Positions 4,021 through 57,561 of a DNA stretch of 64,000 nucleotides are shown here, in pieces. The stretch comes from Octopus vulgaris (taxonomy: Eukaryota). The stretch lies in NCBI GenBank assembly GCA_951406725.2, contig OX597833.1, positions 28,892,001 to 28,956,000 on the forward strand. The letters are read 5' to 3'. The notes under the pieces were generated by a model that saw only the letters and a list, made by a program, of their open reading frames with translations, did not search any database and was not told the DNA's origin. How positions within the stretch are numbered: position 1 is the stretch's first letter; each line of letters starts with the position of its first letter. The position numbers and the translations under genes are program-made.

Positions 4021-4071
4021 AGCTTCTACATGACTAGAACTGTTTCATTCAGATGAAATCTTCTGGAAGCT
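4021..4071 (-). ncRNA. Degenerate type I hammerhead ribozyme motif
   Basis: Minus strand: AGCTTC-CAGAAGA-tttcatctgaat-GAAA-cagttctagtcatg-TA-GAAGCT. Stem I AGCTTC/GAAGCT is perfect; the core reads CAGA instead of CUGA. Confidence 0.55.
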
Positions 4072-4185
4072 GGCTGTCATATATATATATATATATATAT
4101 ATATGTATACACACACACACACACACACACATATATATATATATATATATATATATATATATATATATATATATATATATATATA

Positions 4186-6348
4186 CTAGCTGAAGGTGAC
4201 CCGCTCTACTCGCGGGTAAGAGCGTGGTTGTTACTTTCTGTTGCTTCCTTTCAGCACGTAAAAAGCACCATCCGAACGTGGCGGATTGCAGCGCCGCCTT
4301 GACTGGCTTCTGTGCTGGTGGCACGTAAAAAGCACCAACCGATCGTGGCTGCTGCCAGCCCCCCTGGAACACTCAACCATAGAACACTCAACCAAGTTTC
4401 CCGAGCTCTGGTCATAGACCATAGAACACTCAACCAAGTTTCCCGAGTTCTGGTCATAGACCATAGAACAGTCAAGCAAGTTTCCCGAGTTCTGGTCATA
4501 GACCATAGAACAGTCAAGCAAGTTTCCCGAGTTCTGGTCATAGACCATAGAACACTGAAGCAAGTTTCCCGAGTTCTGGTCATAGACCACAGAACACTCA
4601 ACCAAGTTTCCCGAGTTCTGGTCATAGACCATAGAACACTCAACCAAGTGTCCCGAGTTCTGGTCATAGACCATAGAACACTTAGCTAAAATCTAATTTC
4701 TACCTAGTCTGAACCAATCAATCCGCCGCAGTCTTCATCCACACAGAGCTTACTCAACCATGTTCCAGTTCCAGCGACAGACGACCAGACCAGCCAGTCA
4801 TGTTCCTGCTCCAGCCAATGACGACGCTAACATACACCAGCAACGCCACCGACGCCTTCATCTCAACGTCGCCTTTCTCTGCCGTCGCCATCACCATCGT
4901 CGTCCTTCACCTTCACGTCGTCTCCATCTCCGTCGCCTTCATCTCCAGCAACACTAATATGTACATAGCACTCATTCAGGTTTAGCTTTCACGCTGTTAT
5001 GATTTTCACCAAGGTTAACAGCACAGCACTACCTGCGAGATCTTCTGTACCAATGTAACCTGGCACAGCATTGAAGCCACAACCACTACACGACATGGGT
5101 TCAACCGGCATCTGCACTTGTGATCCGAACATCCTGTTACAGAACGAACTGCTATTATGTACTTTACTACGAACTGGTAAATTAACTCGATCTTGTCTGA
5201 AATACCCTGAGAGACTTTTCCTATGCGCTGTAATTTGTTTTGCCCGCATACACCTTGTTTGTACTTCTGTCGCACACACGAACACACATAGTTAATACAC
5301 ATACAAATGCTATCTCTGTCACATTCATACGCCACACATGCCTTTCTCGCTTGTTTTCCATGCTCAATGTGCCCTTGTAAACATAACTCATCTCTGTAAG
5401 ACCCTAGGTCGGTCACGCATACATAGAGAAAGTTGTTTGTCCCTTACAACGCGCCAGCATGCCACACTTTTGTTCCTGCACGACCGAAGCATATAATAGC
5501 TCAAGCACTGGCTGGCAGCCTCAGCCTTACCGCATTAATCACTGGGATATTCAATACTGTACACTGTATTTCAGCCTAGCAAGTCCTATTGCACTCATGC
5601 ACCTCTGTTCTGCACGTGTACTCCCTTGTTTTGCAACACGTCTGCGTCAGCTCATTTCTTCTCCCGACTCAAAGTACGTCGGATGTTCACATGCGCTGCG
5701 CTCATATTTAGGCATAATTTCCCCCTGTTAGACCCCTGTTGGTCACGTAATTAACAGAGAAAATTATCTGTCTCGCACCCAAGTTGCACCCAAAAAGTGT
5801 AAAGAAGCAACCAGTTCCCTTTACGTAACTATCAAAAAGTATTAAAAAGTTTAATATACTTAAATACAGATATATACATTATATATACATATTTATATAT
5901 AGAACACACACACACACATATATATAAACGCTCGTTGGTGTGTTCTGTTTGTATTTGGTCGATGGGCGCGTTGACAGGTAGACAATAGAATGCGGTGGCG
6001 ATGGCGATGGAATATTTGTTTCTCTGTATGAATGCAGACAGATACATGAGTAAAAGTTATGGGAAGCTAAGAGATAGAGTGAGTGAAAATGTTCTTACAT
6101 TAAACAACGGGAGTGGACTTGTCAAAGTTATATATGAAGGGGAGTTCGAGGGGAATGTTGGAAATAGCGCGAGTGAGGAAGATGGCCCCTAGCAACCACA
6201 CCTTTTAAGATAGGGATTTCTAAGGTAGCCCACGGGCATCGTCACCTCATTCTACATGTCCCTGTAAATTTTGGAGCGAATCGGACGGGACGTAGTGGCA
6301 TTGAAAGCGATCCAAGCGGTAAAAACGCATTTCAGCTTTATATATAGA
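4186..6348 (-). mobile_element. Non-autonomous Helitron-like element with internal captured sequence
   Basis: Minus-strand 5' end TCTATATATAAAGCTG at 6348; 3' hairpin ACCCGC/GCGGGT (4199-4217) followed by CTAG (4186-4189); (TA)n on both flanks. That the two ends belong to one element is inferred. Confidence 0.55.
4376..4682 (+). repeat. Minisatellite, 42-bp unit x~7.3
   Basis: ACCATAGAACACTCAACCAAGTTTCCCGAGTTCTGGTCATAG repeats; explains the 14-aa repeat ORFs in three frames. Confidence 0.95.
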
Positions 6349-6588
6349 TATATATATATATATATATATATATATATATATATACATACACAAGCATATA
6401 AACGTATAAATGTGTATGTATTTGTGTATATGTATGTATGTATATATACACACACACACATATACATATATACACACACACACACACACACACACACACA
6501 CACACACACACATATATATATATATATATATATATATATACATATACATACATATATCAAAATATGTAACAAGGATATCCAGAGGTAA

Positions 6589-6680
6589 TGCAGTACGATC
6601 GTTTCATACAACTCTATTTAATTGAAAAATGAAATCATTTCATTACATCAATTTAAAATGTAGAGCAATCTTCAGCTGTA
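6589..6680 (-). ncRNA. Type I hammerhead ribozyme motif, intact core
   Basis: Minus: CAG-CTGAAGA-[long stem II, CTCTA...TAGAG]-GAAA-CGATCG-TA-CTG. Palindromic stem III, GUA cleavage triplet, short stem I. Confidence 0.7.
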
Positions 6681-54424: not shown

Positions 54425-54919
54425 TACTGTTGGAATATACCTATACTGTAAACTAACGCATATATATATATATATATATATATATATATATATATATATA
54501 TATATATATATATATATATATATATATATATATATATATATATATATATATATATAAATATATATATATATAAATATATATATATATATATATATATATA
54601 TATATATATATATATATATATATATATATATATATATATATGTTAATAAAATATATGCATATATATAAACATATATGTACGTACCTACCTCTACATGTAC
54701 ATATACACGCATATATGTGTACAGGACACCAAAAGGACGTCGAACACATAGAGAGACGAAAAACATAGACACAAACCAAGGAACAAGACAAGCAAAAAAA
54801 GGAAATACAGGACAATAAGCACAACGAAAAATCCCCTTCTTCAGTCGCTAAAGTTTCATCTACTAAACGTTTCGAAGGATATATGCGTTAGTTTACAGTA
54901 TAGGTATATTCCAACAGTA
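54425..54919. repeat. 41-bp perfect inverted repeats bracketing (TA)n plus a PLE-like fragment
   Basis: 54425-54465 TACTGTTGGAATATACCTATACTGTAAACTAACGCATATAT is the reverse complement of 54879-54919. Confidence 0.9.
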
Positions 54920-56212
54920 ACACCCCCACCACCCTGCCCTGTCCCTAGCCATATTCAGATGGCTTTAGTCCCTTATGTTATATATATATATATATATATA
55001 TAGGGAGAGAGGGAGAGGTGTATGTATGGTTTTATGCATGTGAGGGTATGATGTGCACAATGCGCTGTGTACAATATGTTAAGTGTAGGAGTGTGTATAT
55101 AATATATATATATGATGCGTGTAGGTGTGTATTTTAATCGAGTATGTATGTAGGTGTATAATAGTTTACTGCGTAGTTACTTTAAATGGTGCCACCTACG
55201 ACTACCACCAATACCACTACCACAACGTTCTGAACACATTCAACCACTGCTGCTACTACTACTACAACCACTGCAACTACACTATCGCCACCAGCACCAT
55301 GAATACTACTACCATCACCGCCACACTACGACTACTACTGCCACGACCTCTGTAACTACTACTACAACCAATTACCTATATATACTACTGCCCCCACACA
55401 CTAACCACTTGCTCTACTACCACTTATACCACTATGACTACCACCTGCTCTACTATTGCCAACAAAATCATCACCTGCATCACTACCACCTACACTATTG
55501 TCACTAAGAGTCTCAAGACATTTCGCTCGACCTGCTAGAAATAGGAATCAAATCTCCTCCAAATCACAACTTACTGTTGTAAAAGGGACTACAGTTGCAT
55601 ATACATACATACATACATACATACAATATATATATATATATATATATATATATATATATATATATATATATATATATATATATATATATATAATATATAT
55701 ATATGTATATGTGTGTGTGTGTGTGTGTGTGTGTGTGTGTGTGTGTATGTATTAGAAGAAATGAGGTACTCAGAAAATCGGATGGTTTATATTTACAGAT
55801 ATTTATTTGTATATTACATTTTTTATATATCATATAACTTAGATCGTATATTAGCGCTTCCTCCCATTCTAGTGGGGTTTTCAAATCAAACTAAGTTATA
55901 TATATATATATATATATATATATATATATATATAAAGGCAAGACGGCCAAGGTTGGAATGCCTTTGACTTGTTCCAACAGGGCTGACCTGGGACTAAACA
56001 ACAAAAATATCGCTTGTACCTGTACCCATGCACTAATACCACCTATACGACTGCAGTTTAAGCTACTAGTGCATAAGCTACCACATTACTAACGTCTTTA
56101 CTATAGCTGCATACACTATTATCACCTTCACTATTGTGGTCTACATTACTGCCTATGTTGTTACCATCGGTATTATTGCCACCAGCACTGCTAACACCTA
56201 TACATCTGCTAA

Positions 56213-56620
56213 GCGTGGCTGTGTGAGTAAGGTGCTTCCTGTCCAACGATGTGGTCTCTGGTTCAGTTCCACTGCGCGGCATCTTGGGCAAGTGTCTTCT
56301 ATTACTCCGGGCCAACCAAAGCCTTGTAAGTAGAATTGGTAGTGGATTTGACAAGAACCCTGTCGAATACATACATACACATATCTATAATATATATACA
56401 TATATATTGTATATGTGTGTGTATGTATGTTTATGTATGCATATATGTTTATCTCTCACCACGGTTTGACGAGTGTTAGTTCATTTGTGTACCCGTAACC
56501 TAGCGGTTCAGCAAAACACATTAATAGAATAAACACCAGACTTTAAAAAAAGGCAATGAGGTCGATTTGTTCGACTAAGCCCCAGCATGGCCGCAGTCCA
56601 ATAAATGAAACGAATAAGAT
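56213..56620 (+). mobile_element. SINE family B, diverged
   Basis: GCGTGGCTGTGTG...CTTGGGCAAGTGTCTTC...CCCAGCATGGCCGCAGTC. Confidence 0.8.
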
Positions 56621-57470
56621 ATATATATAAAAAAAAGATGCGTTACTAACACCAACACTGCTACCTTATACTACAACCACCTGTGCCGCTATTACTTGTA
56701 CTACCAACACAACCACAATCAATGCCACCACTTCTGTAATCAAATCCAACAATACCAGCCCCCAACCACTAATCTCTACGCAACCTCCACCTCTTCAATA
56801 TTAAAAACCAGCAGGGAGCCTCTACGTGATCACTAGATCTACTAGAGATAGCTGCTAAATCTCCCTCAAATCACAGGAAAGAATTGGATGATGTTGTCCA
56901 ACTTACTCCAAGACGGACGGATGGCCAAGACTAAGTCTGACCTATAGTTAAACACTACTAAACTTTTGCATATAACTTATCACCATCATTGACTCAACCA
57001 CCACCACTACTACTACTCTACTACTACTACTACAACTAGTAGTAGTAGATCACACCACTACTACTGCCAAAATTATTGCCACTTCCCATTGTCGCTTCTA
57101 TCATTAAAACTTAACCACCACGTAATCTGTATAAACACTACATAGCACTACTAGCAGTGCCACTAACTCATCAACTATTACTACAATTACTTCCACCAAC
57201 AACAGTTTCTTTGTTCGAAGTTTTCCCATCTCCCTCTCCCTCCCTATATATGTATGTGTGTGTGTGTGTGTGTGTGTATAAATATATATATATATATATA
57301 TATATATATATATATATATATATATATGAGCAATAAAGATTCAAGTCAATTTTAATGAATTTACTTGAATATGGTACCTAACTTAGAAGCAACAAAAAAC
57401 TATACGGTTATAACCATACAGTAATGTGGGGTGATTATAAGCGAGAAAGAAGCAACAAGAATGGATAAGT

Positions 57471-57561
57471 TTTTAGTACAATCGTTTCATACAAAGACAG
57501 GCTTTATTAAAAGTTGCAAAAATTGCAGCATATAAACGTGTCCCGTACTCATCAGCTAAAA
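57471..57561 (-). ncRNA. Type I hammerhead ribozyme motif, intact core
   Basis: Minus: TTTTAG-CTGATGA-GTACGGGACA...TGTCTTTGTAT-GAAA-CGATTG-TA-CTAAAA. 6-bp stem I, long stem II, GUA triplet; in a ~310-bp module with (TA)n on both sides. Confidence 0.8.

Follow-up and report, generated by a model that had tools for sequence, protein, structure and literature searches.

Hammerhead ribozymes with a palindromic helix III, cleaving as dimers, were known before this work from Penelope-like elements (PLEs), including those of the Hydra clade. This clade of PLEs with a C-terminal endonuclease is defined by the motifs RWK and DKT, a CxCX5C linker, a GIY-YIG endonuclease without an internal cysteine pair, CxxC and CxH; its members, among them Hydra-1_Obim of Octopus bimaculoides, use (TA)n targets, have pseudo-long terminal repeats (pseudo-LTRs) with inverted truncated copies and carry a type I hammerhead near the 3′ end (PMC8557442). 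The elements listed there are 1.1–3.0 kb long, and helix II of their hammerheads has 3–7 bp with loops of 3–10 nt (7 bp and an 8-nt loop in Hydra-1_Obim). Here we describe hammerhead motifs in a window of 64,000 nt from Octopus vulgaris (the whole stretch of DNA analysed, positions 28892001–28956000 of contig OX597833.1 in a 2.8-Gb assembly). These motifs are probably type I hammerheads at the 3′ ends of decaying, 5′-truncated PLE copies, whose active parents likely cut only as dimers paired through helix III. In most octopus motifs the helix II arm is two to four times longer than in relatives.

Three other described systems are close to the octopus motifs. Metazoan PLE hammerheads likewise form many families per genome, mostly as single truncated copies or inverted pairs, and likewise have a palindromic helix III, a short helix I, an extra base before helix II and a dimer model of action, but their helix II has 6–8 bp (PMC4209133). 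The non-LTR retrozymes of axolotl, mussel and coral share with octopus the type I hammerheads and the very high copy number; they are dimer-dependent in amphibians, and one family has U-U at the base of helix II, as in octopus. However, they are tandem units of 170–400 nt without an open reading frame (ORF), whereas the octopus motifs are long-armed, dispersed ends of ORF-bearing elements (PMC7229834). A precedent for the long arm exists in the PLE-X1 hammerheads of Selaginella, flagged as deviating, with an enlarged helix II (9 bp and a 34-nt loop in PLE-X1_sMoe); these make up two plant families of another PLE clade, located at rDNA, and not a genome-wide majority (PMC8557442).

The first-pass annotation of the window named eight motifs of one architecture, and the letters at all eight places agree with it. 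Intact hammerhead cores, with C3 U4 G5 A6 N7 G8 A9, G12 A13 A14, the pair A15.1-U16.1 and H17, are present in four of them: three, at 6589–6680(−), 20198–20276(−) and 57471–57561(−), had been called intact and were confirmed on reading and by a core scan (cores 6594–6675, 20202–20272 and 57477–57555), while the fourth, 47552–47623(+), has an intact core yet a helix I of 0 bp. Of the five motifs called decayed, those at 29553, 48598 and 4021 do have core changes, the one at 47547 lost helix I, and the one at 48108 is without support. In the families of the motifs at 29553, 47547, 48598 and 4021 an intact core is the commonest state.

The window has 37% GC, many microsatellites and broken pieces of long interspersed nuclear elements (LINEs), Helitrons and DDE transposons, and the motifs could be chance matches in such AT-rich, microsatellite-rich DNA. 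A bare two-box scan (CUGANGA...GAAA-N6-UH) is in line with this, with 6 matches in the window against a mean of 4.0 in 100 local dinucleotide shuffles, 24 of which reach 6; nor was a Rfam hammerhead matched at the gathering score. When the core was combined with a helix I of at least 3 bp and a near-palindrome, however, the window gave 3 matches against a mean of 0.03, and 0/100 shuffles reach 3. The shuffle comparison proposed in the first pass thus separates the motif with its helices from random sequence, but not the bare pattern. Searches with motif and flanks as query then placed seven of the eight motifs in seven dispersed repeat families (A–G), in keeping with the expected association with repeats. 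The first-look genome candidates numbered 2461 for the motif at 6589, 157 (20198), 2056 (57471), 1541 (29553), 247 (48598), 415 (47547) and 600 (4021); these are not copy numbers, and 40 were scored per family.

In the genome as a whole the pattern CTGANGA-N46-75-GAAAC-N4-GTA has 26,416 matches versus 519 for the reversed control, a 51-fold excess, and with an N8-37 spacer 9,036 versus 628; both counts omit spacers of 38–45 and >75 nt and other cleavage triplets, and nested cores may count twice. For density we used 60 evenly spaced 10-kb stretches (600 kb), taking as intact an exact core with a self-complementary helix III and a helix I of at least 3 bp, and as near-intact the same with one core mismatch allowed. 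The sample has 14 intact motifs (0.0 in five shuffles), 11 of them with arms of at least 38 nt, and 26 near-intact ones. Extrapolation gives ∼65,000 intact motifs per genome (95% range 36,000–110,000), one per 43 kb, and ∼121,000 near-intact motifs (79,000–178,000). Two of the 26 near-intact matches, copies of one sequence, may derive from a LINE; leaving them out, the near-intact estimate is ∼112,000. Given these excesses and the family membership, chance is refuted for seven of the eight motifs, and as an explanation of the whole set it has next to no probability.

The exception is 48108–48162(+), where a CUGAAGA box is present, G12 is lost and the hexamer is not palindromic. No relatives cover this motif (the genome matches, 4 besides itself, extend over 47995–48087 only), and it is probably chance, or else decayed beyond calling.

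Minimal hammerhead motifs have been put at 2,000–9,000 per genome (PMC4209133), and 126,247 hammerhead motifs were reported in axolotl (PMC7229834). By density the window is an ordinary sample of the octopus genome: it holds 3 intact motifs versus 14 in the 600 kb sampled outside it (Poisson p 0.19) and 4 near-intact ones versus 26 (p 0.30), and the 2 intact and 8 near-intact motifs in its 200-kb flanks fit the genome background. It is therefore not the multi-family cluster that it had been taken for. The very large genome-wide burden that had been extrapolated from it does exist, but a density of one per 8 kb is reached only with heavily decayed relics, the intact motifs being about five times sparser. 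Less than 100 kb away, the flanks (L268–L287) contain an inverted motif pair with 100-nt arms and another motif with a 98-nt arm.

The eight motifs are not copies of one another in repeat and self-BLAST searches, so the remark that their stems are unlike in sequence was correct. One architecture is shared by six of them: in the window copies of families A to F the helix II spacers are 63, 52, 60, 77, 53 and 66 nt, respectively, and all six families have a self-complementary helix III. The palindromes reported for it, CGAUCG, CACGUG, CAAUUG and CAGCUG, are present, while the CGAUUG of the motif at 57471 is self-complementary only via G-U pairs. The motif at 4021–4071 does not have this architecture: its helix II measures 12 nt, and its helix III consists of 4 bp and a loop of 8 nt.

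The parent of family C could be identified. The window copy (57329–57642(−)) is the 3′ pseudo-LTR and tail of a young Hydra-type PLE, flanked by (TA)n tracts; it has a 6-bp helix I and the helix III A-CGAUUG-U, and the cut is predicted after GUA at 57477. Its 39 other best places in the genome are 97–99% identical, and the intact element L137 is 96–98% identical. A GIY-YIG domain lies 1.5 kb upstream of the hammerhead in longer copies, and copies whose open frames have close to 980 codons came up in a protein search. In L137 the ORF (L137:3777–6647) has 957 aa counted from the first Met, and the same 60-nt-arm hammerhead is present in both direct pseudo-LTRs, 4650 bp apart; owing to Asn-rich inserts the ORF is ∼250 aa longer than in most relatives. 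Of six long family C loci fetched, four also contain a truncated copy in inverted orientation that carries the motif or its tail. The single ORF of these elements (L137–L142) encodes a reverse transcriptase (RT) with RWK, DKT and the CxCX5C linker, and, at the C terminus, a GIY-YIG domain without the internal cysteine pair (no CCHH), with CxxC and CxH.

With these diagnostic motifs, the parent of family C is by its sequence a PLE of the Hydra clade, and the pseudo-LTRs, inverted truncated copies, tail and (TA)n insertion agree. A Pfam search returned no RT match for the protein; the RT assignment is drawn from the motifs and from likeness to the Hydra-1_Obim protein, with which these motifs are shared (PMC8557442). 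The closest named relatives are Octopus proteins with 70–85% identity. Family C departs from the descriptive, non-diagnostic traits of the clade, generally <3 kb with a canonical short helix II, in its 4.65-kb unit and 60-nt arm; its 957-aa ORF with Asn-rich inserts, its 1.5-kb 3′ untranslated region and its ∼120-nt tail are also unlike those of the listed elements. Contigs of four sequencing runs cover the element, some spanning the cut site; the RNA nature of three of the runs is a guess, and assembled contigs show neither ends nor expression.

Other origins were considered for family C. A Naiad origin, with reference to the ‘half cores’ 35–50 nt apart (PMC8557442), was rejected since the endonuclease is C-terminal and the motif is DKT; Naiad elements have an N-terminal GIY-YIG and DKA (PMC8557442). 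Neptune was dropped as family C matches the Hydra definition, and an endonuclease-only element was dropped after intact RT copies had been found. In the Naiad_Ovul and Naiad_Obim 3′ ends (supplement of PMC8557442) one sees by eye a GUA, a 6-bp stem closed beside CUGAUGA, and GAAAC with a 5-bp helix III partner, in a non-standard order; from these letters the octopus Naiad ends are possibly a permuted hammerhead, in a clade reported to lack hammerheads. Pieces of elements like family C also occur inside annotated Octopus gene models (P0021, P0027), probably a misannotation.

Family A (window copy 6548–6804(−), a 5′-truncated pseudo-LTR fragment ending at (TA)n) is tied to such elements by DNA homology. 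Its best relatives are 91–95% identical, and it is 68–78% identical to pseudo-LTRs beside RT-bearing Hydra-type elements; helix III is CGAUCG, and helix I has 3 bp in the window copy and reaches 6 bp among relatives. At L064 an endonuclease fragment lies next to family A in inverted orientation and is not attributable to it. More broadly, among 20 further RT-bearing loci (61–88% RT identity) 12 have a motif with a 51–60 nt arm on the sense strand, 3′ of the ORF, and 2 more have such a motif only upstream. The RT-bearing loci split into two well-supported clades in a quick tree (15 octopus and 8 other proteins, without named Hydra references), and 51–60 nt arms are present in both.

The five remaining families are represented as follows. 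Family B (20118–20340(−)) is an old repeat fragment with relatives 68–82% identical; its window copy has the helix III CACGUG and a 4-bp helix I, and the commonest helix II among relatives is 71 nt. The family D copy (29270–29711(+), core 29558–29653, helix III CAAUUG) has lost U16.1, with relatives 83–96% identical. Family E (47390–47694(+)), the copy with the intact core and lost helix I, has relatives 75–87% identical in which helix I is ∼2 bp and helix II 57 nt; helix III is CAGCUG. In the family F copy (48345–48791(−), core 48687–48603) A9 and one helix III base are changed, while its relatives, 74–82% identical, have the helix III CAGCUG and a 4-bp helix I. Family G (4007–4078(−)) is a 70-bp stub with a (TA)n tract on either side and 39 other best places at 97%. 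Its design has a helix I of 6 bp next to the short helices II and III given above; U4 and one helix III base are changed in the window copy, and several inverted pairs occur among relatives.

In the 1.5-kb flanks of 11–19 relatives each, we found neither an RT-endonuclease ORF nor a DNA match tying B, D, E, F and G to the 22 RT-bearing loci, which counts against a PLE origin for them; fragments of an endonuclease or RT in the vicinity of relatives of D and G are not attributable to those families. Some of the five might instead be non-autonomous retrozymes or derivatives like short interspersed nuclear elements, spread via small circular RNAs. The missing ORF would suit this, as would the report that animal non-LTR retrozymes stem from PLE pseudo-LTRs (bioRxiv 10.64898/2026.07.22.740005). 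Yet none of the eight window motifs lies in a tandem array in a repeat search, a partner within 1.5 kb is direct in 0/30 and inverted in 7/30 genome loci, and the combination of (TA)n flanks with 5′ ends that vary and 3′ ends that are fixed is that of truncated PLEs. We regard the retrozyme explanation as improbable. From these ends and flanks and from the inverted pairs, a PLE origin is inferred for the five families, which are likely Hydra-type as well. The link to full-length PLEs proposed at first is thus shown for the family at 57471, extends by DNA homology to that at 6589, and would hold for the others on the strength of their ends.

The long arm of helix II was examined from several sides. 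In the first 30 genome matches, which include related copies and are not independent, features outside the search pattern agree with the fold: the inner tetramer is self-complementary in 26 (∼15% expected), helix I has at least 3 bp in 22, and the mean folding z of the arm is −1.67. Among 13 aligned homologous sequences, chosen from the A/C group, the catalytic positions are all invariant, and in a hand-drawn structure 15 of 26 pairs change on both sides, which 0/500 shuffles reach, and 86% of cells are paired versus 27–53% in slid controls. Covariation is present in all helices, and within the arm both partners of a pair change in the middle helix and in the apical one; RNAalifold recovered helix I and the apical hairpin. 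Covariation thus shows helix II to be an irregular, long hairpin that has been retained in lineages with protein differences of up to one half. Some results pull the other way: z is below −2 in only 11 of the 30 arms, the structure tested was hand-drawn from the same sequences, RNAalifold missed the base of helix II and preferred a core-blocking pairing, and in A-like motifs position 10.1:11.1 is often U-U (unpaired in 6 of 13 rows).

The arm is not equally long everywhere. Among 78 metagenomic loci encoding related Hydra-type proteins, 54 have a motif, all with 10–25 nt spacers and 50 with a longer helix III insert; the other 24 gave no motif in a test with a helix I of at least 4 bp and are uninformative on arm length. 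Among the octopus families the arm is 8 to 100 nt long, with deletion variants such as the 36-nt arm at L161, and since short-arm families spread here too, a long arm is not essential to every family. This range, together with core-like duplicates inside the family D arm and a helix II that varies within families as much as the flanks (0.099 versus 0.105), is what might be seen if loop II had expanded neutrally in AT-rich lineages, where it would be tolerated provided it folds back; such an expansion concerns the arm only and is compatible with the PLE origin. Against neutrality, arms of 51–60 nt persist in both main RT clades, pairs in the middle and apical helices change on both sides, and arms >25 nt are absent from the 54 metagenomic relatives in which a motif is present. 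We consider neutral expansion quite possible, though short of probable. That octopus helix II is a functional domain of 40–100 nt, gating dimer cleavage or binding the protein of the element, in ∼65,000 intact and >100,000 near-intact copies, is a tentative proposal that we hold to be rather doubtful.

As for the duplicates, GAAAC-N4-G-like and CUGNAGA-like sequences lie inside the family D arm at 29558–29653(+), and in a family E relative (L072:1501–1578) an inner CUGAAGA precedes GAAA by 9 nt. Partial duplication of the motif may be the origin of long arms.

Arm length also explains why these motifs score low in Rfam: 57471–57561, with a 56-nt insert, reaches 18.4 bits versus the Hammerhead_1 gathering score of 34 bits. 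In 150 kb holding known motifs there were 0 hammerhead matches at the gathering score, and none of the matches listed for the window (150 of 179) is a hammerhead, microsatellite-driven miRNA-type matches being found instead. A published descriptor caps helix II at 7 bp and a 10-nt loop (PMC4209133), so that arms of 38–100 nt cannot match it. In the giant squid genome 235 Rfam Hammerhead_1 matches were reported (PMC6962438). In the literature searched (few subscription papers, supplements in part) we found no long-armed majority form or such burden in octopus, and neither ‘ribozyme’ nor ‘hammerhead’ occurs in the main text of an octopus repeat annotation from 2026 (PMC13282606).

The ends of the copies bear on how the motifs multiplied. 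Counted from the cut site, the first position of the inverted arms is +41 in 8 of 34 copies, as far as the reference allowed this to be seen, and +162 in 7 of the 34, and short family C copies meet (TA)n at +149 to +157 in 20 of 20 cases, a two-start tail signature like that of Anolis Poseidon, but with a longer tail (PMC11167929). Reverse transcription thus starts 41 or ∼155–162 nt beyond the cut site and mostly stops early; even stubs of 70–450 bp carry the motif, which accounts for its tens of thousands of copies. The pseudo-LTRs of one copy differ at 0, 2, 0 and 0 of 225 positions in four copies, versus 0–18 between those four, as expected if both derive from one RNA, circular or re-primed.

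Predicted folds suggest when cleavage would take place. On their own the helix III octamers do not close into hairpins, but as self-duplexes they reach −5.8 to −11.1 kcal/mol, and the core is masked in the monomer folds predicted; both fit the known dimer model (PMC4209133; PMC6765202), as had been argued from the palindromes. A single copy would fold inactive, and the template would survive; the dimer would form within a tandem transcript (pseudo-LTR, ORF, pseudo-LTR) or between two RNAs and would then cut, and the cut RNA would perhaps be ligated into a circle and copied more than once round, giving identical pseudo-LTRs. As the weakest step, the long arm might have been added as a structural unit (a brace, a brake or a handle for protein binding) that became common in octopus lineages.

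Several observations speak against this scheme. The 5′ ends of the 34 long copies all lie more than 20 nt away from the upstream cut site (0 of 34 closer), and 9 of these copies read through it; both speak against a simple role of cleavage in setting the 5′ end of the RNA. Each of the 20 family C loci extends across its own cut site, so that templates were uncut or religated. A fifth copy, L142, has 36 differences between its pseudo-LTR segments, and for the window copy of family B the inactive shape is predicted to be 8.5 kcal/mol more stable. In Anolis Poseidon, where uncut RNA was found to be the substrate in vitro, insertion was unaffected by mutation of the hammerhead, and reads with an end at the cut site were not seen (PMC11167929).

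The hammerhead fold may instead be kept as a structural signal, for protein binding, template positioning or RNA stability, with the arm as a handle and cleavage of little or no matter. Copies that do not start at the cut site or that read through it and the Anolis mutants would be in accord with this, as would the weak in vitro activity of metazoan PLE hammerheads, dimers included (PMC4209133). What makes it unlikely in our view is that the catalytic positions stay invariant in the 13 aligned sequences while the helices turn over, that helix III stays self-complementary with double changes, a need of dimer catalysis, and that core positions vary less than flanks among relatives (49/859 versus 719/6818, a comparison biased by the ranking of matches by likeness to the query). 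The dimer-cleaving PLE hammerhead is thus the reading that we prefer.

Intact cores are kept in 17 of 19 relatives of family A, 12 of 19 of B, 4 of 13 of D, 5 of 14 of E and 5 of 14 of F. Selection appears to act on active source elements, while genomic copies decay. The conservation of structure from which selection had first been inferred is borne out by covariation, but it pertains to the source elements and not to the genomic copies, as the fractions for D, E and F illustrate.

The window also contains a GIY-YIG endonuclease fragment of another Hydra-type element at 24644–25099(−) (38% over 95 aa, E 3e-17), which begins at a (TA)n tract. Some 530 nt downstream, at 24106–24112(−), is a CUGACGA box with GAAA 36 nt on; it lacks both a palindrome and a helix I and may be a ninth motif, in decayed form. 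Fragments of a Helitron-type PIF1 helicase (PF05970, E 6e-52) extend over 34833–38060 and include a direct duplication (34860–35479 and 37300–37922, 96% identical). Inverted 323-bp copies of a young short repeat, 99% identical, lie at 46704–47026 and 59512–59834. Broken LINE reverse transcriptase pieces, one open frame among them having 506 codons, and a Tc5/pogo-type DDE fragment occupy 9585–12212(−), 50437–51685(+), 61468–63587(−) and 38891–39460(+).

These results bear on the role of hammerheads in PLEs and indicate that size-capped descriptors and Rfam undercount animal ribozymes. With intact young elements, dozens of long-arm and short-arm variants and mapped ends, the dimer-gating and circular-template models are directly testable in octopus. 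Most copies are probably inert relics, which limits their effect on host biology. If the arm were indeed a functional domain, octopus would carry among the densest animal ribozyme loads, missed by standard searches, and nearby or intermolecular pairs of motifs could cut host transcripts.

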